A stretch of 64,000 bases of DNA from the IMG/VR virus record IMGVR_UViG_2585427757_000006. One strand, 5' to 3'. The notes below the pieces were generated by a model. It saw only the letters and a list, made by a program, of their open reading frames with translations, was not told the DNA's origin and made no database searches. Below, piece by piece: positions 17,228-24,546 of this stretch. The first letter of the stretch is position 1; each line of letters opens with the position of its first letter. Origin of the DNA: a virus. Lineage: Duplodnaviria; Heunggongvirae; Uroviricota; Caudoviricetes. Position numbers and translations under genes: made by a program.

Positions 17228-17872
17228 CTAATGAACGGTCACTCGGCCACAGAACCGGTTTTCTATCTTTTCTACAGCGTTATCTAGCATTCTCATCACT
17301 GATCTGGCTCTTGCTTCAACTGTGCGATACCGGTTGGAAACGACGAAGGTTTGCAGATCTCCCCTTTGCGGATGCAGGTGAATTTTTGTCAGTTCCCCGC
17401 ACATCAACGCATCAATACGAGCGACATACAGACGGTCTAATGATGCTCGTTGTAACCGCAAGTAATCTCGCTCTGAGAGAGCGACCCCCGGGCGTAGGCC
17501 AGCAATGGCGTTAAAGTTTGAAATAGCAGTTTTGTGGCAAAACTTTTCGATATCGAGGGCTAACTCAATACACCGATCTTCATTTGTATGGCCGACCAAA
17601 TCCAACGTGTAGGCCATAACATCAGCAGGTGTGCGATCGATAACAAAGCCTTCAGCACCACGCGTAAGTAGCTCTATATGCTTTGCGATTTCCATTTGAA
17701 TCTGAAGCCGCTCATATAGAGGCATAGAATCACCTACTCGAACACCGAGGCGGCTCATCAAACTTCCGACACCAGCATCCACGTAAGGGATTCCGTAATG
17801 TTTGTCGATATATTTAGCCAGGGTTGTTTTCCCACTGCCCTGAGCACCAGTGATCCCAATCCGGTAATCCAT
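17228..17872 (-). CDS. P-loop nucleotide kinase (deoxynucleoside monophosphate kinase-like)
   Basis: Walker A GITGAQGSGKTT at N-terminus; located in nucleotide-metabolism block. Confidence 0.5.
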   Translation of the reverse strand: MDYRIGITGAQGSGKTTLAKYIDKHYGIPYVDAGVGSLMSRLGVRVGDSMPLYERLQIQMEIAKHIELLTRGAEGFVIDRTPADVMAYTLDLVGHTNEDRCIELALDIEKFCHKTAISNFNAIAGLRPGVALSERDYLRLQRASLDRLYVARIDALMCGELTKIHLHPQRGDLQTFVVSNRYRTVEARARSVMRMLDNAVEKIENRFCGRVTVH

Positions 17873-18348
17873 TACGACCTTCTGTATACGATCTGCGAAA
17901 AGCCAGGCTCTTCCTCGCTGGCTCGTTGGGTATAAGCTGTTTCAACAGGCACAAAGCCTAAATTACGCATCATGCTTGCCGGGAAGAATGCATCGGCGTT
18001 TGGCACATCAACGCCGATGTGGGAGAGCCAAATCTCTTCAACATGCGGCATGAATAGCGAGTAAATTTGTTCCCCGCCAATCACCCACACAGGCTCTGGT
18101 AATCGCAACACATCATCCACACCAGCAGGGTAGAATCCATTTGGTACAAAGCCATGAGAGCGCGTCAAAACGAGGTTATGACGCTCTGGAAGAGGGCGTT
18201 TGAGACTTTCCATCGTTTTACGCCCCATAACGACAGTGGCGTTTTTGGTGAGTCTCTTAAATAGCTTCAGATCGGTAGAACAACGCCAGGGCAGTTCGTT
18301 CGCTATGCCGATTTCATAGTTACGGCCAACAGCAGCTATCATCTTCAT
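17872..18348 (-). CDS. folA: dihydrofolate reductase
   Basis: MIAAVGRNYEIG, LPWRCSTDLKLFK, VVMGRKTMESL, VIGGEQIY resemble DHFR. Confidence 0.85.
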   Translation of the reverse strand: MKMIAAVGRNYEIGIANELPWRCSTDLKLFKRLTKNATVVMGRKTMESLKRPLPERHNLVLTRSHGFVPNGFYPAGVDDVLRLPEPVWVIGGEQIYSLFMPHVEEIWLSHIGVDVPNADAFFPASMMRNLGFVPVETAYTQRASEEEPGFSQIVYRRS

Positions 18349-18758
18349 TTGCTCACCTCATAGATGACCGGTCTATGATGAGAGTCAGCTAAAGCGGCAC
18401 GGAGTCGAGGATCGTGCACCAGCGCAGCGATAAGCAGATCGCCTTTATGCTCCGCTAATGTGCGCTTAATATGCTTCTCATAACTAGTGCTATTCGGTAC
18501 GAGGTGAAGCCAGTCGTAATCAACACCAAAATCTTTCAGCCATCGTTTAGTGGGCGCTTCAAGAGTTTCAGAGCGGCTACTGATAAGCACCACTTCAGCC
18601 CCTGAGCGAGCAAAACCACGCAACATACGGCTGGTGGGGAAAATGAGTTCATCACCGGCAATGAATTGGCCTGCATCCGAGTCAGATACAGATTTACGAT
18701 GGCTGGTATTTGCCAGCACACCTTCAATTTCGCATAAGACATACATACCTCTTGCCAT
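18345..18758 (-). CDS. HAD/5-prime-nucleotidase-like protein with atypical motif I
   Basis: VLCEIEGVLAN aligns to nucleotidase DMDGVLAD scaffold but with C-x-E in place of D-x-D; start set at MARGM, one nucleotide after thyA stop. Confidence 0.35.
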   Translation of the reverse strand: MARGMYVLCEIEGVLANTSHRKSVSDSDAGQFIAGDELIFPTSRMLRGFARSGAEVVLISSRSETLEAPTKRWLKDFGVDYDWLHLVPNSTSYEKHIKRTLAEHKGDLLIAALVHDPRLRAALADSHHRPVIYEVSK

Positions 18759-18759
18759 A

Positions 18760-19890
18760 TCACACCGCCACTGGAACCTTGATCCACGGTAGAGGGGCAT
18801 AGCCAAGAATAAGAATCTCGTCCCATTTGAAATCATCCAGCTCAGACCATTCATTAGGGAATATAACGACCGGATCTGAATGCTCTGGAGCCTGTCGTTG
18901 CATTAGCTCACACACACCTTCCATGTGGTTGTTGTACAAATGCACGTCAAAGCCAAAATGCACAAATGCACCGGCCATGTGACCCGTAATCTTCGCGAGA
19001 AAATGAGTGAGAATGCCATAGCCAGCAATATTGAATGGCATACCAACAAAAGTGTCTACGCTACGCTGTACGAGGCAGGAGTTGAGGATGCGTTTGGGGA
19101 TTCCAAGTTCATCCAGTTCAGCTTCAGTAACACTGCCGTCTATCTCCAGATCGTATAGCATCTTGGTGTAGATAGACTCGTAACCGAGGCGACTGTGTTG
19201 AAGACCAATGTCAGTTGCCATCGTTAAACGGGTTTCAAAATCCAGCTCACGACTCCACAAAGAGAAGACAAAGTGGCAAGGTGGCAGTTTCATATCCTCA
19301 AGCTCGCCTACGTTCCATGCGTTAAGCATGATGCGACGATCGGTAGGGTTCGTGCGCAGTGTATCGACAATACGCTGTAGCTGATCGATTTCACGGGACA
19401 GCACTACGCGATCTTCACTGATACCCAGGTATCCCTCGACTTTGTACCCGCGTTCACGGAAAGTAGCGATCTTGCTCAGATATTCACTATGGCTCACGAT
19501 GCGGGTATCTTCCCATCGACGCCACTGCTTACCGTAAACCGGCCCCAAATCGCCATTCTCATCGGCCCATGCATCCCAAATCTTAACGCCGTTATCCTTG
19601 AGAAATTGGATGTTGCCCGTGCCTTTCAGATACCACTCAAGTTCGACAAGCAGTGGCTTAAGATTTACCGCCTTTCCAGAAATAAGCGGCACAGTCCCAC
19701 CAGTAAGCATGTAGTAAGAGGGAACGTAGCAGGTGCTTAAAGTACCAGTGCCTGTGCGATCATCAGCCTGCACGCCGCTTTTAAGCACCGTCTCAATAAC
19801 TTTTGCATACGATGCGTTTGTTACCTGACCGTTCGTATGCTCACGATTCAAAAGGAGTGACACAAAAACCTCACAAAGATAAGTAACCAC
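18760..19890 (-). CDS. thyA: thymidylate synthase with two internal insertions; start codon uncertain
   Basis: DRTGTGTLS, WADENGDLGPVYGKQWR, RRIMLNAWNVGE, PPCH, MPFNIAGY, C-terminal PLPWIKVPVAV; track ORF begins at a GTG. Confidence 0.85.
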   Translation of the reverse strand: MVTYLCEVFVSLLLNREHTNGQVTNASYAKVIETVLKSGVQADDRTGTGTLSTCYVPSYYMLTGGTVPLISGKAVNLKPLLVELEWYLKGTGNIQFLKDNGVKIWDAWADENGDLGPVYGKQWRRWEDTRIVSHSEYLSKIATFRERGYKVEGYLGISEDRVVLSREIDQLQRIVDTLRTNPTDRRIMLNAWNVGELEDMKLPPCHFVFSLWSRELDFETRLTMATDIGLQHSRLGYESIYTKMLYDLEIDGSVTEAELDELGIPKRILNSCLVQRSVDTFVGMPFNIAGYGILTHFLAKITGHMAGAFVHFGFDVHLYNNHMEGVCELMQRQAPEHSDPVVIFPNEWSELDDFKWDEILILGYAPLPWIKVPVAV

Positions 19891-19927: not shown

Positions 19928-19955
19928 AGACCAGACAGATAAAAAAATGGTGGCC
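19928..19955 (-). terminator. rho-independent terminator
   Basis: tggtggcc-loop-ggccacca hairpin followed by seven T on the minus strand. Confidence 0.6.
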
Positions 19956-20034
19956 ATAGGCCACCAAAAACGAATAGTTGTTTCAGAAATTTAACGCGCC
20001 AGCGCAATATACACAGATAGATAACTACCTACAA

Positions 20035-20904
20035 TTATTTTTTGATCATTCCGTACATTGCTGAGGCTTTAGCTTGCTCAACAAAGGAGGATAAATCGAC
20101 ATCACTATAGGTTGGAGACTTCAGAATCTTTCCATCGGAAATTCGAAAACCGATCATCTTATCGGTGCCATCAGCATGGCGAAATCCCAGGTCAGAAGAG
20201 TCGTATTTGCAGTTGGCCACAGCATGGCGACGCTCTTCGGCATCTGCAGGCCATAATTTTGTCATGTTGGACCGATGAATTTCGCCAACCAGCTCGACGA
20301 CATTGATACCGAGAAAATCAGCCAGTCGATAAGTCATCATGCACGCCACATAGATTTTGTTCATTACACGGCGCAGTTCCTGAATCAGCTCAGAATCCTT
20401 AACAGTCTTCTTCTCAAGTTTATCTGCCAGCTCTTCGAGCATACATGACGCCTCACGAGCTTCCTGAAATGGCATTGCCATATCATCGAAAACAGTGTTA
20501 CCAGGCACAAAAATTGTCTGCATAAAGCGATCAATGCTCTGTTCCTGCGTGTAATAAGTCATGCCGGTAGAAATACCACCTTTGATGGCGACCATCGTAC
20601 CAACACCAACGTATAAAAAGTCGGCCATTGCATCCAGCAGTTGCTCAATATCCCCATTCATTGCGGCTGGAATACCTTCCACTACAGCTTCTTCATGAAT
20701 CAGGCTTGCACGGAGACGAAGCAGCTCTGGTGTCGGCATAACGCGTCTCGGATGCTGGAAGAGTTCATGAAACTGATCGACCATCTTGTAAATACTTTCA
20801 GTGGCTACACCATGGCCTTCATGCAACTCATATGGTTCTGGCTTAAATCCAATGAGTCGATCGGTGGCAAGTTTCAGGTGGTCAGTCAGTTTGGTAAAGT
20901 TCAT
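20035..20904 (-). CDS. hypothetical protein, possibly MazG/HisE-like nucleotide pyrophosphohydrolase
   Basis: 289-aa ORF between thyA and nrdB; acidic helical EE-x-D pattern only weakly suggestive. Confidence 0.3.
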   Translation of the reverse strand: MNFTKLTDHLKLATDRLIGFKPEPYELHEGHGVATESIYKMVDQFHELFQHPRRVMPTPELLRLRASLIHEEAVVEGIPAAMNGDIEQLLDAMADFLYVGVGTMVAIKGGISTGMTYYTQEQSIDRFMQTIFVPGNTVFDDMAMPFQEAREASCMLEELADKLEKKTVKDSELIQELRRVMNKIYVACMMTYRLADFLGINVVELVGEIHRSNMTKLWPADAEERRHAVANCKYDSSDLGFRHADGTDKMIGFRISDGKILKSPTYSDVDLSSFVEQAKASAMYGMIKK

Positions 20905-20981: not shown

Positions 20982-22124
20982 TTACAGGTCTGCAAACTGG
21001 CTTAGAGAAGCCTTATCCACGGTAGAATCGATCTGACCTACCAGATATGTGCTTTGCTCTGCCTCTTGTGGTGCAATTTGCAGTGTGTCGGTTAACAACC
21101 ACTTGTTCATCCAGACCAGCGGATCAGTGGTAACTTCTGGAAATAAAGCCTTCAGGCCAAGACGATTCATAGCCAGATTGGTGCGGTATTTTACATAGGT
21201 TTTGAGAATATCCGCGTTTAAACCAATCATCGAACCGTCTTTGAAGAGATAGTCTGCCCAGTTCATTTCTTGTTCGGCGACTGATTTCATGGTGTCGTAA
21301 ATGACGTTTTCTTCATCAGCAGCAATCTCTTTCCACAATAAACCTTCGCGACCGGTACGCATGAAGCGGATCATGCGTTCAGTTCCTTCGCAATGCAGAG
21401 CTTCATCACGGGCAATAAAGCGCATAATTTTGGTGTTACCCTCAAGCAACTTCCGTTCACCAAAGGCAAACGTACATGCAAAACTTACGTAGAAACGGAT
21501 CGCCTCAAGCGCATTAATGGACACCAACGTGCGGAAAAGCTGACGATGCAAAGGGTATGGCTCCCAGCCATATTCATTTACGTACAGACGCTCAAATTCC
21601 TTCTCACCTAACGACTGGCGCTCGCAGGTCATCCCATAAAGCCTGTCATATTCAGCAGAGATACTGATCGCTCGGTTGATGATTTCTTCATCCGTAACAA
21701 TGCCGTCAAAAACAATGCTCGGATCGTCCACCATGCCACGAATAATGTGGGTGTAGCTGCGGCTATGGATAGTCTCAGAGAAAGACCACGTTTCAACCCA
21801 CGTTTCCAGTTCAGGAATAGAGATAAGCGGCAGCAGCGTTGCATTTGGACTACGTCCCTGAACTGAATCGAGTAACGTTTGATAACGGAGATTGCTCAGA
21901 AAAATGTGACGTTCGTGGTCCCGCAGCTTCGTGTTGAAGTCGATACGATCGCTCGAAATATCAACTTCTTCCGGCCGCCAGAAGAAAGACAATTGACGTT
22001 CAATCAACTTTTCAAAATCACGGTATTTTTGCTGATCGTAACGTGCCACGTTGACAGATTGTCCGAGGAACATAGGCTCTTTGGTTGCATCATTAGCACC
22101 CAAACGGAACGTTGAATATGACAT
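20982..22124 (-). CDS. nrdB: ribonucleotide reductase class Ia beta subunit
   Basis: Diiron ligand pattern incl. EAIRFYVSF and ARDEALH; C-terminal tail; 380 aa. Confidence 0.9.
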
Positions 22125-22230: not shown

Positions 22231-24546
22231 TCAGATTTTGCAGGCTCCGTCGCACTCATCTTCTGGCTCGACGGCTACAGCTTGCGCCAGTGGATTCTGC
22301 GGTTCGTCGTCATCACGCTTTCCTGCACCATCTCTGGTGTTGTGGTAGTAAAGCGTTTTAACTCCCATCTTGTAGGCGAGAAGCAAATCTGACAGTAGCG
22401 TCATCATTGGGACTTTATCGCCTTCAAAGCGAGAAGGGTCATAGTTGGTATTGGCTGAAATAGCCTGGTCAAAGAACTTCTGGATGATCGCCACCTTTGT
22501 CAGATAGCCGCGGTTGTCCGGCATATCCCACAGGTATTCATACTGTTCCTTCAGTTTTTCAAACTCAGGCACGACCATCTTAACGATGCCGTCCTTAGAA
22601 GATTTCACCGACACCGGGCCACGAGGCGGTTCGATGCCGTTGGTGGAATTAGTGATCTGGCTGGAAGTCTCGCATGGCATTTGTGCCGTCAGTGTGGAGT
22701 TGCGAAGGCCGTATTTTGCAATACGTTCACGCAGTTCTTCCCACGGCATCTTTAACTCAAAGTTGGTTTCGCCACTTTCGTCTAATGAAGAACGGTAATG
22801 GTCGATCGGCAACTGACCAATTGCGTATTTGGTCTGCTCAAACCAGTCACACTCACCTTTTGCTTCAGCAAGTCGGCAGCTGGCATCAAGAAGGTAATAC
22901 TGGATAGCTTCGAATGTTTCATGCACCAGTTTATTGCCAGCGGTATCAGAATAACGAACGCCATTCTTTGCCAGGTAATAAGCAAAGTTGGTTACACCAA
23001 TTCCCAAGCTACGACGAGCTTTGGCAGGCACTTCGGCTGCCTCCATCGGATAGTCTTGATAATCCAGTAACGAATCCAGTGCAGCAACGGCATAGAACGC
23101 CACCTCTTTAAGAGACTCCAGTGAACGGATGGCTCCGAGGTTAAAAGCGGATAAAGTGCATAGCGCGATCTCACCGTTCGGGTCGTCGGTAAATGCCAGT
23201 GGACGGGTGGGTAGGGTGATCTCCATACACAGGTTTGACTGGCGGACAGGTGCAAGAGCAGGAATGAAAGCGCCATGCTCATTAATATGATCGACGTTCG
23301 CAATATAAATTCGGCCCGTGGACGCTCGTTCCTGCATCAGAGATGAGAACAGCTCAATGGCAGGTACTGACTTCTTGCGAATTGAATCATCGGCTTCGTA
23401 TTTATGGTACAGCTTTTCAAACAGCTCCTGGTCTGTGAAGAAGGCTTCGTACATATCAGGCACATCATGCGGGCTGAACAGAGTGATGTTCTCGCTTCTG
23501 ACGAGTCGACGGTACATTAGACGGTTACTCATGACGCCGTAATCAAGATGGCGAACGCGGTTTTCATCAATACCACGGTTATTTTTCACCACCAGCAGAC
23601 TTTCAACTTCAAGATGCCAGATCGGGTAAAACGCTGTTGCTGCGCCACCACGAACACCACCTTGCGAACAAGATTTAACAGCCGTCTGGAAATGCTTCAG
23701 GAATGGAATAACTCCGGTATGGGTGGCTTCACCATTGCGGATCTCGCTGCCCAGCGCACGGATACGGCCAAAACCAATACCAATTCCAGCACGACGTGAA
23801 ACGTAGTCGATAATTGCGGCTGAAGCTGCACTAATCCCTTTCAGACTATCGCCAGACTCAATCAGCACACAACTGGAGAACTGACGGGTTGGAGTACGGA
23901 CGCCGGCCATGATTGGTGTGGGCAGAGACAGTTTGAACGTACTTGTAACGTCATAGAAACCTTTGACCATCTCCATACGTGTTTTGCCAGCGCAGTCGTC
24001 TTCCCAATTCTGGAACAGACACATGCCTACCAGCATATAGATATGTTGCGGCCCCTCATGAATCTCACCAGTAACACGGTTTTGAACGAGGTATTTGCTT
24101 TGCAACTGCACCGTAGCTGCATAGCCAAAAAGATCGTCACGTTTCGGCTTAATGTAATTGCCGAGTTCTTCGATCTCTTCAAACGAATAATGTGTCAGCA
24201 AATCCTTGTCATAAACGCCCTTGTTAACGTTCTTGACAATGTGTTGGTAGAAGTTCGGATAGTCGTAACGACCGAAGGCATCTTTGCGGATTTTAAAAAT
24301 GTTCAGGCGGGCAGCCACCTGTGAGTAATTTGGTGCTTCTGGTGAGATCAAATCAGCGGCAGATTTAACCAAAGCCTCATGCAACTGGCTGGTGGTCATC
24401 CCATCAAAAATGCTGGCCGCAGCTCCCATTGCTACAGCGGATGCGCTTACACCACGAATGCCTTCTACGCCATACATTACGACGCGGTTGTATTTTTCTT
24501 CGGATAACGGCTCTGTTTGGCCGTTACGTTTTACGATGCTTATCAT
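22231..24546 (-). CDS. nrdA: ribonucleotide reductase class Ia alpha subunit
   Basis: 771 aa; N-terminal ATP-cone MISIVKRNGQTEPL, catalytic NLCMEI and C-terminal CxxC tail. Confidence 0.9.
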   Translation of the reverse strand: MISIVKRNGQTEPLSEEKYNRVVMYGVEGIRGVSASAVAMGAAASIFDGMTTSQLHEALVKSAADLISPEAPNYSQVAARLNIFKIRKDAFGRYDYPNFYQHIVKNVNKGVYDKDLLTHYSFEEIEELGNYIKPKRDDLFGYAATVQLQSKYLVQNRVTGEIHEGPQHIYMLVGMCLFQNWEDDCAGKTRMEMVKGFYDVTSTFKLSLPTPIMAGVRTPTRQFSSCVLIESGDSLKGISAASAAIIDYVSRRAGIGIGFGRIRALGSEIRNGEATHTGVIPFLKHFQTAVKSCSQGGVRGGAATAFYPIWHLEVESLLVVKNNRGIDENRVRHLDYGVMSNRLMYRRLVRSENITLFSPHDVPDMYEAFFTDQELFEKLYHKYEADDSIRKKSVPAIELFSSLMQERASTGRIYIANVDHINEHGAFIPALAPVRQSNLCMEITLPTRPLAFTDDPNGEIALCTLSAFNLGAIRSLESLKEVAFYAVAALDSLLDYQDYPMEAAEVPAKARRSLGIGVTNFAYYLAKNGVRYSDTAGNKLVHETFEAIQYYLLDASCRLAEAKGECDWFEQTKYAIGQLPIDHYRSSLDESGETNFELKMPWEELRERIAKYGLRNSTLTAQMPCETSSQITNSTNGIEPPRGPVSVKSSKDGIVKMVVPEFEKLKEQYEYLWDMPDNRGYLTKVAIIQKFFDQAISANTNYDPSRFEGDKVPMMTLLSDLLLAYKMGVKTLYYHNTRDGAGKRDDDEPQNPLAQAVAVEPEDECDGACKI

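Follow-up and report, generated by a model that had tools for sequence, protein, structure and literature searches.

A putative, catalytically conventional ThyA with two inserts encoded by an SSU5-like phage-plasmid of Escherichia coli

The thyA gene described here very probably encodes a catalytically conventional thymidylate synthase of the ThyA type that belongs to an SSU5-like phage-plasmid, an activity that we infer from the sequence of its product. Such an enzyme would convert dUMP and 5,10-methylene-tetrahydrofolate to dTMP and dihydrofolate. Relative to E. coli ThyA, the protein carries an N-terminal extension and two inserts, and the inserts would not determine its chemistry but would be structural or docking add-ons that, for example, stabilize the dimer or touch partner enzymes.

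Identity of the element, start codon, and gene neighborhood

The window, i.e., the whole 64,000-nucleotide stretch of viral DNA that was analyzed, is an SSU5-like phage-plasmid of E. coli. Its thyA is 99.6% identical to that of Escherichia phage CMS-2020a. The same gene, with a length of 367 aa, both inserts, and the same neighbors, is present in Escherichia phage Cyrano (CYRAN_72; 98.8% DNA identity) and in Salmonella phage SSU5 (SSU5_081; 77.8% DNA identity), and the gene in pHCM2/SSU5-like plasmids shows no difference of substance. In the Cyrano record the gene is mislabeled ‘ThyX’; its product is of the ThyA type (PF00303). The annotation ‘thymidylate synthase’ is found in hundreds of Enterobacterales plasmids of ~100–115 kb, and 919 records of PLSDB matched, 895 of them with at least 80% protein coverage. 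In SSU5-like elements, then, thyA is an already known and correctly annotated thymidylate synthase gene.

All genes and features given below lie on the minus strand of the window. An open reading frame of 376 aa that begins at a GTG occupies positions 18760..19890. A first-pass annotation, made from the letters of the window, had considered the start codon of this frame uncertain and had placed its GTG 43 codons ahead of DRTGTG. The motif begins at codon 44 of the long frame and the count is therefore correct, and the doubt about the start proved justified. The coding sequence is best placed at 18760..19863 (367 aa, with the stop codon at 18760–18762), which shares its start with the Cyrano and SSU5 annotations. 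A Shine-Dalgarno-like GAGG, read from the sequence at 19869..19872, lies 5 bases upstream of the GTG at 19863, and a comparison of start codons revealed that GAGG or GGGG is kept at this position in relatives. The codon matching 19863 is the start in close relatives, being GTG here and TTG in SSU5 and one Klebsiella plasmid, and in-frame stops lie upstream of this conserved start in the SSU5 and Klebsiella relatives. Inspection of the sequence upstream of the GTG at 19890 revealed no Shine-Dalgarno sequence, and this codon was rejected as the start given this and the relatives’ stops located 5′ of the conserved start. The GTG at 19863, rather than that of the longest open reading frame, is thus most likely the start of thyA, and the nine surplus codons (19864..19890) are probably untranslated.

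The order of the genes around thyA is kept in relatives down to 62% protein identity. On the upstream side are genes for a MazG-like nucleotide pyrophosphohydrolase (20035..20904; PF01503, E = 1.3e-8; phrog_671), the small subunit of ribonucleotide reductase (20982..22124; PF00268, E = 4.5e-46; nrdB in relatives), and, as judged only by synteny with the 2316-nt nrdA of Cyrano and SSU5 and by the length of its 771-aa open reading frame, the large subunit of that enzyme (22231..24546). Between the MazG-like gene and thyA is a terminator-like hairpin (19948..19966; an 8-bp stem with 6 G-C pairs, and seven T) that was identified as a match to a consensus pattern only. Downstream, a gene for a HAD / polynucleotide-kinase-phosphatase-like protein of 137 aa (18345..18758) starts one base past the thyA stop and is annotated in Cyrano and SSU5; the protein has a weak match to PF25109 (E = 1.5e-4, under the gathering score) and matches to phrog_5387 and phrog_415. 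The dihydrofolate reductase (DHFR) gene, two genes downstream of thyA (17872..18348; PF00186, E = 1.6e-34), encodes a protein 91% identical to the DHFR of SSU5, for which PMC12217456 introduced the name dfrA51 and demonstrated function. Next to it is a gene for a P-loop nucleotide-kinase-like protein (17228..17872; AAA_28, AAA_17, and AAA_18), a candidate dNMP kinase with a weak match to (d)CMP kinase and a match to phrog_2107 ‘thymidylate kinase’ (1.4e-9).

DHFR recycles the dihydrofolate that is produced by ThyA. Collectively, nrdA, nrdB, the MazG-like gene, thyA, the HAD-like gene, the DHFR gene, and the P-loop kinase-like gene form a nucleotide-supply block that would allow the element to synthesize dTTP itself as it replicates, tetrahydrofolate being restored by the adjacent DHFR.

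Active site and inferred chemistry

The predicted protein matched the thymidylate synthase family of Pfam (PF00303; E = 2.9e-78, 263 bits versus a cut-off of 24.3), the NCBIfam equivalog TIGR03284 (219.2 bits versus a cut-off of 108.35), and phrog_160 ‘thymidylate synthase’ (1.8e-94). It is 44% identical to E. coli ThyA (EC 2.1.1.45; PDB 2TSC, 1TYS) over 264 alignable positions, and phmmer matches to E. coli ThyA chains (~3e-59) were always broken into three stretches by both inserts. The core fold of an AlphaFold model, built from a 98-sequence alignment (single-sequence input gave a pLDDT of 33), superposes on E. coli ThyA with a TM of 0.94.

The catalytic motifs had been read as intact in the first-pass annotation, and DDRTGTG, YGKQWRRW, LPPCHFVFSLW, and GMPFNIAGY were all found. 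A pairwise alignment covered 27 residues with roles in substrate binding, folate binding, or catalysis, and 25 of them are the same as in E. coli ThyA; this identical set comprises R21, K48, E58, I79, W80, D81, W83, Y94, R126, R127, L143, C146, H147, Q165, R166, S167, D169, G173, F176, N177, H207, Y209, and the P-V-A tail (E. coli numbering). The sole real change among the residues checked is that of E. coli H51 to N67 here. The replacement of L172 by V is conservative. The final residue is V rather than I264, and the end of the tail is unchanged in position.

The catalytic nucleophile within LPPCH, Cys196, is encoded at 19276..19278 and corresponds to C146 of E. coli ThyA in the alignment. 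Together with H197, E74, and Y110 (E. coli H147, E58, and Y94), it makes up the nucleophile and proton-transfer network. Across the 98 aligned homologs, the core residues of the active site, these four among them, do not vary. Thymidylate synthase is an obligate homodimer in which four Arg and a Ser bind the phosphate of dUMP, with two of the Arg coming from the partner subunit. These phosphate binders (R36, R176, R177, R267, and S268, equivalent to R21, R126, R127, R166, and S167) are conserved in the alignment, including the partner-subunit arginines. Residues for uracil recognition and cofactor activation (N278 and D270, equivalent to Asn177 and Asp169) and for folate binding (I95, W96, W99, L193, and F277, equivalent to I79, W80, W83, L143, and F176) are likewise retained, and the site-closing C-terminus reads ...KVPVAV here versus ...KAPVAI in E. 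coli.

Formally, the plasmid copy duplicates the chromosomal thyA of an E. coli host, which would fit a decayed or non-catalytic homolog kept for some other role. This reading is highly improbable, since all catalytic residues are intact, dN/dS in the core is ~0.05–0.1 where measurable, and the gene is intact in the hundreds of plasmids identified in PLSDB. Searches of the literature returned no enzyme assay or complementation for this protein or for any ThyA with the second insert.

The inserts had also been taken to hint at a changed use of substrate or cofactor, for example a dUMP or dCMP hydroxymethylase-like activity feeding DNA base modification. There is some basis for this suggestion in that ThyA homologs of phages include such enzymes, often annotated as ‘thymidylate synthase’ (SPO1 gp29 and ViI 060c), and in that MazG-like, kinase-like, and phosphatase-like genes are close by. 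Moreover, a published caution (PMC5977210) that applies here is that sequence alone may not readily distinguish hydroxymethyl-dUMP synthases from thymidylate synthases. The fold of the superfamily, the catalytic Cys, and the Arg-Ser and Asp of RS.D are shared by the protein with SPO1 gp29, ViI 060c, the enzyme of Bordetella phage CN2, and T4 gp42. The known and predicted dUMP hydroxymethylases among these (SPO1 gp29, ViI 060c, and CN2) have six departures from ThyA in common, namely the lack of DRTGTG, the lack of the IWDEW tryptophans, PCN, NRS(.D), G(A/I)N, and a long C-terminal helical extension. At all six sites the protein examined here is in the ThyA state (DRTGTG, IWDAW, PCH, QRS.D, PFN, and the PVAV end), and BLASTP returned 22–37 bits to the three hydroxymethylases versus 190 to E. 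coli ThyA. An SPO1-like hydroxymethylase was rejected as a candidate identity, given that its extra length is C-terminal and that its signatures differ from those found here.

The dCMP hydroxymethylase of T4 has an Asp in place of Asn177. The equivalent Asn278 is kept here, and the modeled structure is not closer to dCMP hydroxymethylase than to ThyA. DHFR is needed after methyl transfer and not after hydroxymethyl transfer, as follows from the stoichiometry of the reactions, and the nearby DHFR gene would for this reason also count against a hydroxymethylase. In the annotated neighborhood of Cyrano and SSU5, no DNA-modification genes acting past 5-hmU were seen. The claim of altered chemistry was thus not upheld, given the retained uracil-site Asn, folate-binding Trp, and PVAV tail, the similarity scores, and the DHFR gene nearby, and we consider it very improbable that the inserts make this protein a dUMP or dCMP hydroxymethylase. 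Nothing in the predicted protein or its surroundings suggests a changed chemistry or the presence of a DNA-modification pathway. The other possibility raised at the outset, that this is simply a phage-type ThyA, is supported by the intact ligand-binding and catalytic residues, the ThyA core fold, and the recurrence of the inserts in many phages.

Structure, selection, and distribution of the inserts

The two insertions noted in the first-pass annotation are both real, although their lengths, estimated there as roughly 28 and 50 residues, are 34 and 51 when measured by alignment to E. coli ThyA, which lacks both as well as the 15-residue N-terminal extension (residues 3–17, at 19813..19857). 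The extension is the fastest-evolving region of the protein (dN of 0.28 versus SSU5), and the lowest confidence of the structural model is at residues 1–10 (pLDDT of 68).

Insert 1 (residues 122–155 in the 367-aa numbering, at 19399..19500) lies between YGKQWRRW and IDQL. It is modeled as a strand (117–124), two helices (125–130 and 132–137), and two further strands (141–146 and 152–159) with a pLDDT of 94–97, suggesting that it forms a small beta/alpha unit after the QWR motif. Insert 2 (residues 204–254, at 19102..19254) occupies the turn of the beta-hairpin beginning at the catalytic Cys and is predicted to form a helical module there, with three helices (209–225, 231–242, and 247–253) and a pLDDT of 93–98. 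The AlphaFold model folds the inserts at high confidence (pLDDT of 94.9). Where they would lie with respect to the active-site entrance and the dimer interface was reasoned from the known topology of ThyA. Neither insert alone matched PDB sequences at E ≤ 10, a search that also returned no solved counterpart of insert 2, and the inserts alone did not match Pfam. A profile of insert 2 only, built from 49 proteins and thus short and variable, returned 81 candidates from a collection of 5.8 billion proteins, none with E ≤ 1. No description of these inserts was found in the literature on SSU5, pHCM2, phiKZ, and jumbo-phage thymidylate synthases.

Both inserts are under purifying selection. Relative to SSU5, the core has a dN of 0.064. 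Insert 1, at 0.035, lies below the core, and insert 2, at 0.13–0.14, reaches about twice the core value, with dS at or near saturation. The edges of insert 2 are conserved as (S/T)RE(L/M)..ER and LD..(I/V)P.R.L and its middle is hypervariable in length and sequence. These edge motifs are found in enterobacterial phage-plasmids and as far away as phiKZ, and so is the pattern W.DTR..RG(Y/F)..R.IDQ of insert 1. An intein or intron origin was rejected given that 34 and 51 aa are too short for an intein or a group I intron, that the inserts are in-frame, and that selection acts on them at the protein level.

Homologs with both inserts were identified in SSU5-like plasmids of many Enterobacterales, Erwinia jumbo phage EarlPhillipIV, phiKZ, and jumbo-phage-like metagenome contigs. 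When the best 150 clusters at 50% identity were compared, both inserts were present in 53 of the 120 that were measurable; under strict classes, 23 had insert 1 only and 16 had insert 2 only. The inserts are consequently not a single obligate unit, as each is found without the other in many clusters. The family has three indel hot spots, namely the site of insert 1, that of insert 2, and the L. casei-type site, where 0 to ~270 extra residues occur in different clusters. It is these hot spots that lend some plausibility to the inserts being functionless, either as neutral, tolerated loop expansions or as scars of past mobile insertions at permissive sites. We regard this as unlikely, although not negligibly so. 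A dN for insert 1 below that of the core, a dN for insert 2 only about twice that of the core with saturated dS, the persistence of the motifs of both inserts as far as phiKZ, and the short length and in-frame position of the inserts argue against this reading.

With the same query, insert 2 was present in 80 of the 80 best viral contigs (match lengths of 246–318 nt), and the best 80 loci from cellular genomes all lacked it (150–180 nt), where each scan covered 600 non-random candidate stretches with slightly different patterns, and where the cellular scan is a sample only, with SSU5-like plasmids not among the matches listed. Given the samples examined, insert 2 might be used to recognize viral ThyA by a simple sequence feature.

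Comparison with other thymidylate synthases and implications

T4 and T5 Td, represented here by their VR26 and DT57C orthologs, are phage ThyA proteins encoded next to a phage DHFR gene, as is the protein examined here, to which they are ~27–28% identical. They have neither insert 1 nor insert 2, and their extra residues precede the W80 region and lie close to the C-terminus. The spacing from QWR to DQ is 5 in the VR26 and DT57C Td versus 44 here, and that from PCH to RS.D is 18–19 versus 69; these T4/T5 Td spacings are equal to or shorter than those of E. coli, and the insert pattern of T4 Td is not seen in our protein.

The chromosomal ThyA of Burkholderia thailandensis, which has been solved (3V8H), has a segment homologous to insert 1 and shares this insert alone. 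It is listed as a putative essential protein (PMC3561365). Our protein scored 137.2 bits against the Burkholderia-type ThyA model (NF010393 / PRK13821), for which the equivalog cut-off is 576. The thought that both inserts might be standard in characterized phage enzymes did not hold for T4- and T5-like Td, although insert 1 does have a counterpart in 3V8H. Homologous inserts 1 and 2 at the same positions were found in the enzymes of phiKZ (488 aa), 201phi2-1 (457 aa), and EarlPhillipIV (gp110; 342 aa), jumbo-phage enzymes that are 37–38% identical to the protein examined here. In the phiKZ type, the ‘small domain’ site of L. casei carries another insert of ~130 aa. Enzymes of the phiKZ, 201phi2-1, and EarlPhillipIV types gave the best structural coverage in the viral library (TM of 0.83–0.85, query-normalized). 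Collectively, these comparisons place the protein in a structural subclass of ThyA, common in phages, with two extra surface modules at known indel sites.

A normal thymidylate synthase in which the inserts, chiefly insert 2, form a functional docking or regulatory module is a serious possibility, if one that we would not put at even odds. Such a module could bring ThyA into a complex with phage DHFR, a kinase, or ribonucleotide reductase, or could strengthen or alter the dimer. This reading draws on the purifying selection on the confidently folded inserts, on the conservation of the boundary motifs of insert 2 in very divergent phages, and on the finding of insert 2 only in viral sequences within the samples examined. 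It is also in line with the proposal that the inserts of T4 Td mediate contacts in the dNTP-synthesizing complex. The hypervariable middle of insert 2 and the occurrence of each insert without the other weigh against it. A docking or regulatory module is a refinement of a catalytically conventional ThyA and is not opposed to it.

For annotation, the conventional ThyA reading has little consequence beyond the start at 19863. The cluster with the adjacent trimethoprim-insensitive DHFR (dfrA51-like) is relevant to the antifolate tolerance of strains that carry the plasmid. A bolder reading, which we hold to be rather doubtful, is that insert 2 is a dedicated interaction or regulatory module that defines a distinct ‘viral ThyA’ class of phage thymidylate synthases. 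If so, this class would span both phage-plasmids and jumbo phages (e.g., phiKZ), and the module might tether ThyA to phage DHFR, a kinase, or ribonucleotide reductase and thereby channel dTTP synthesis, or might shield the enzyme from a host factor. Insert 2, which the ThyA proteins of many phages have in common, be they enterobacterial phage-plasmids or phiKZ-like jumbo phages, provides a defined target for studies of nucleotide-metabolism complexes in phages.

The thyA gene and the element that carries it

The ORF at 18760..19890 on the minus strand (376 aa counted from its GTG) was present with all of the catalytic motifs quoted in the first-pass annotation. Its product matched Pfam Thymidylat_synt (E=2.9e-78) and the NCBIfam thymidylate synthase equivalog TIGR03284 (219 bits, cut-off 108). 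Top PDB sequence matches were bacterial ThyA chains (E ~1e-59 to 1e-63), each split in three, with long-ORF residues 128-165 and 213-270 uncovered.

The doubt already raised over this GTG start was justified. GTG 19863, which yields 367 aa, is the equivalent of the start annotated in Escherichia phage Cyrano and Salmonella phage SSU5 and has GAGG five bases 5' of it; no GAGG-like sequence was read before GTG 19890. The equivalent codon is TTG in SSU5 and one Klebsiella plasmid, a swap that is sensible for a start codon alone and thus supports this position, and the SSU5 and Klebsiella plasmid relatives have in-frame stops 5' of the conserved start codon. A more distant Klebsiella relative has an ATG start four codons further in, which leaves a few codons' uncertainty. 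On sequence grounds, thyA appears to start at GTG 19863, and the long ORF from GTG 19890 is not supported.

The thyA DNA is 99.6% identical to that of Escherichia phage CMS-2020a, 98.8% to Cyrano, and 77.8% to SSU5. The protein matches 919 plasmid records in PLSDB, mostly non-mobilizable and ~100-115 kb, from Escherichia, Klebsiella, Enterobacter, Salmonella, and Citrobacter, and these copies are annotated ‘thymidylate synthase’. Collectively, these matches indicate that the window is from an SSU5-like phage-plasmid and that the gene is an already known, correctly annotated thymidylate synthase. In the Cyrano record (L001, 6001-7104) it is labeled ‘ThyX Thymidylate synthase’, a mislabel, as its product is of the ThyA type (PF00303) and not a flavin-dependent ThyX.

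A putative dNTP-supply block

The gene order nrdA, nrdB, MazG-like, thyA, small HAD-like, DHFR, and P-loop ‘AAA family ATPase’ is shared with Cyrano, SSU5, and two Klebsiella plasmids (ThyA 77% and 62-64% identical). In the phage-plasmid, thyA is embedded in what would be a dNTP-supply block. All of the flanking features described here are on the minus strand. The MazG-like pyrophosphohydrolase (20035-20904; 289 aa) matches Pfam MazG/PRA-PH over residues 42-106 only, with the remaining ~180 residues lacking a family assignment. The gap between this gene and thyA holds a strong terminator-like hairpin (19948-19966; 8-bp stem with 6 G-C pairs, then seven T), which suggests that thyA and the HAD-like, DHFR, and kinase-like genes may form their own transcription unit; a consensus sigma-70 promoter was not found between the hairpin and the thyA start.

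The HAD or polynucleotide-kinase-phosphatase-like protein (18345-18758; 137 aa), encoded between thyA and DHFR, has its ATG one base past the thyA stop; a longer ORF (to 18854) that overlaps thyA is probably spurious. It carries E-I-E (VLCEIEGVL) at the position of the HAD phosphatase D-x-D nucleophile motif, and its relatives carry E-I-E or E-L-D. Because the first position is Glu in all four sequences compared, the protein may be inactive or of different chemistry.

The DHFR (17872-18348), two genes downstream of thyA, is 91% identical to that of SSU5, which, when expressed experimentally, bound trimethoprim weakly and conferred resistance, and has been named dfrA51 (PMC12217456). Given this identity, strains with the element may, by analogy, be less susceptible to trimethoprim. 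The next gene (17228-17872), which shares one base with the DHFR stop, encodes a P-loop nucleotide-kinase-like protein (AAA_28, AAA_17, AAA_18) with a weak (d)CMP kinase match and a phrog ‘thymidylate kinase’ match at 1.4e-9. Judged from these matches, it seems closer to a small nucleotide kinase than to its relatives' annotations (‘AAA family ATPase’ or ‘ABC transporter ATP-binding protein’), and as a candidate dTMP/dNMP kinase it would complete the dTTP route.

Active site and predicted chemistry

The first-pass annotation had suggested that two large insertions might alter activity, for example toward that of a dUMP or dCMP hydroxymethylase, or that the protein might simply be a phage-type ThyA. 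Pairwise alignment revealed 44% identity to E. coli ThyA over 264 alignable positions and identity at 25 of 27 residues with established roles in dUMP binding, folate binding, or catalysis in that enzyme. These include the nucleophile C146, H147, E58, and Y94; the four phosphate-binding arginines, S167, D169, and N177; and, for folate, I79, W80, W83, L143, and F176. H207, Y209, and tail residues P261, V262, and A263 are also identical. L172 is replaced by Val, as is the last residue, I264, with the tail ending at the same position; H51, replaced by Asn, is the only other difference among the residues checked. Core residues are invariant across 98 aligned homologs.

For comparison, we used SPO1 gp29, a characterized dUMP hydroxymethylase, and its tblastn relatives (ViI 060c, Bordetella phage CN2, and M6-like Pseudomonas phages). 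Unlike ThyA, this group lacks DRTGTG and IWDEW, has PCN for PCH, NRS for QRS, and GAN for PFN, and ends in a long C-terminal extension where ThyA has its PVAI tail. The extra length of gp29 is at its C-terminus rather than at the two insert sites. At each of the six separating sites the window protein agrees with ThyA, and its score is 190 bits against E. coli ThyA versus 22-37 bits against the hydroxymethylase group. Methyl transfer by ThyA yields dihydrofolate and hence requires DHFR, whereas hydroxymethyl transfer has no such need; from these known reactions we infer that the neighboring DHFR fits methyl transfer and argues against a hydroxymethylase. Hydroxymethyl-dUMP synthases can, however, be difficult to recognize by sequence (PMC5977210), and for this reason we hold our assignment of a conventional ThyA-type thymidylate synthase to be very likely rather than certain. 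Taken with the intact active site, the signature sites leave the plain phage-type ThyA standing and make it highly improbable that the inserts confer hydroxymethylase-like chemistry.

Structure, selection, and distribution of the inserts

Relative to E. coli ThyA, the aligned protein (minus strand, 367-aa numbering) has a 15-residue N-terminal extension, an insert 1 of 34 residues after YGKQWRRW (122-155; 19399-19500), and an insert 2 of 51 residues after LPPCHFVFSLW (204-254; 19102-19254). Both insertions reported earlier are therefore real; the earlier estimate of ~50 residues agrees with the second, and that of ~28 was too low for the first. From known ThyA topology, we take insert 1 to occupy a surface loop where eukaryotic enzymes too have a short insert, and insert 2 a hairpin turn distal to the active site. 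An AlphaFold model from the 98-sequence alignment (pLDDT 94.9, pTM 0.93; 93-98 across both inserts) predicts three strands and two short helices in the insert 1 region (residues 117-159) and three helices in insert 2 (209-225, 231-242, and 247-253), the latter borne on a lengthened hairpin of strands 197-206 (from the catalytic Cys) and 258-270 (to QRS.D). The edges of insert 2 are conserved, (S/T)RE(L/M)..ER first and LD..(I/V)P.R.L last, and its middle is hypervariable.

Relative to SSU5, dN was lower in insert 1 (0.035) than in the core (0.064) and higher in insert 2 (0.138), with dS at or past saturation. The fastest-evolving part is the N-terminal extension, at dN 0.28. Low dN with saturated synonymous sites indicates that both inserts are under purifying selection. 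This argues against neutral loop expansion, which we consider improbable and rank below a putative structural or docking role for the inserts, insert 2 foremost, itself only our tentatively preferred guess.

No solved ThyA covered both inserts (the Foldseek core match reached TM 0.94 when normalized to E. coli ThyA but only 0.68 when normalized to the query), and neither insert alone matched PDB sequences or Pfam. For insert 1 there is a cellular counterpart of solved structure, in Burkholderia thailandensis ThyA (PDB 3V8H), and this insert is thus compatible with ordinary ThyA function. In a viral structure library, phiKZ-like enzymes covered the query best (TM 0.83-0.85 relative to query).

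The classic characterized coliphage enzymes, T4-like and T5-like Td, have neither insert. Every SSU5-like relative down to ~46% identity carries both inserts, as do remoter proteins of 325-354 aa (36-42% identity) encoded on large contigs. Two of these contigs were directly inspected and look like jumbo phages, with many small ORFs on the same strand and genes for T4 RNA ligase, thymidylate kinase, and ribonucleotide reductase. Both inserts also occur in gp110 of Erwinia jumbo phage EarlPhillipIV and in the phiKZ enzyme, the latter with ~130 further residues at the ‘small domain’ site of L. casei; the Klebsiella phage N1M2 enzyme has insert 2 without insert 1. In EarlPhillipIV (L004), a MazG-like gene (gp118) follows the gene for this ThyA at a distance of a few kb downstream; another is upstream of the two-insert ThyA on L007, a metagenome contig of 356 kb.

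Of the top 150 matches in an exhaustive HMMER search across 1.84 billion cluster representatives, a sample biased towards the query, 120 were measurable via anchor motifs: 53 had both inserts, 23 insert 1 only, and 16 insert 2 only. Some representatives have 120-270 residues at the insert-1 site. Large extra segments are found in metagenomic ThyA P0132, P0139, P0147, P0161, P0164, P0174, P0175, P0190, P0238, and P0266. In some of these proteins they add 215-272 residues at the insert-1 site, and in others 60-200 at that of L. casei; the segments may be inteins, homing-endonuclease domains, or fused domains.

We then compared viral and cellular sequences using as the one query an alignment running from WNVGEL to PFNIAGY, which spans insert 2. 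The best 80 of at least 369 confirmed viral contigs all matched over 246-318 nt, indicating that insert 2 is present, whereas the best 80 of at least 480 confirmed cellular loci all matched over 150-180 nt, indicating that it is absent; the two scans used slightly different patterns, and the result is an indication, not a census.

The window protein is a member of a ThyA subclass, frequent among phages, that bears two add-on modules. Insert 2 appears to be undescribed, restricted to viral sequences in the samples examined, under selection, and confidently folded in the model. What interest remains centers on this insert, which might serve as a marker of viral ThyA and as an interaction module.
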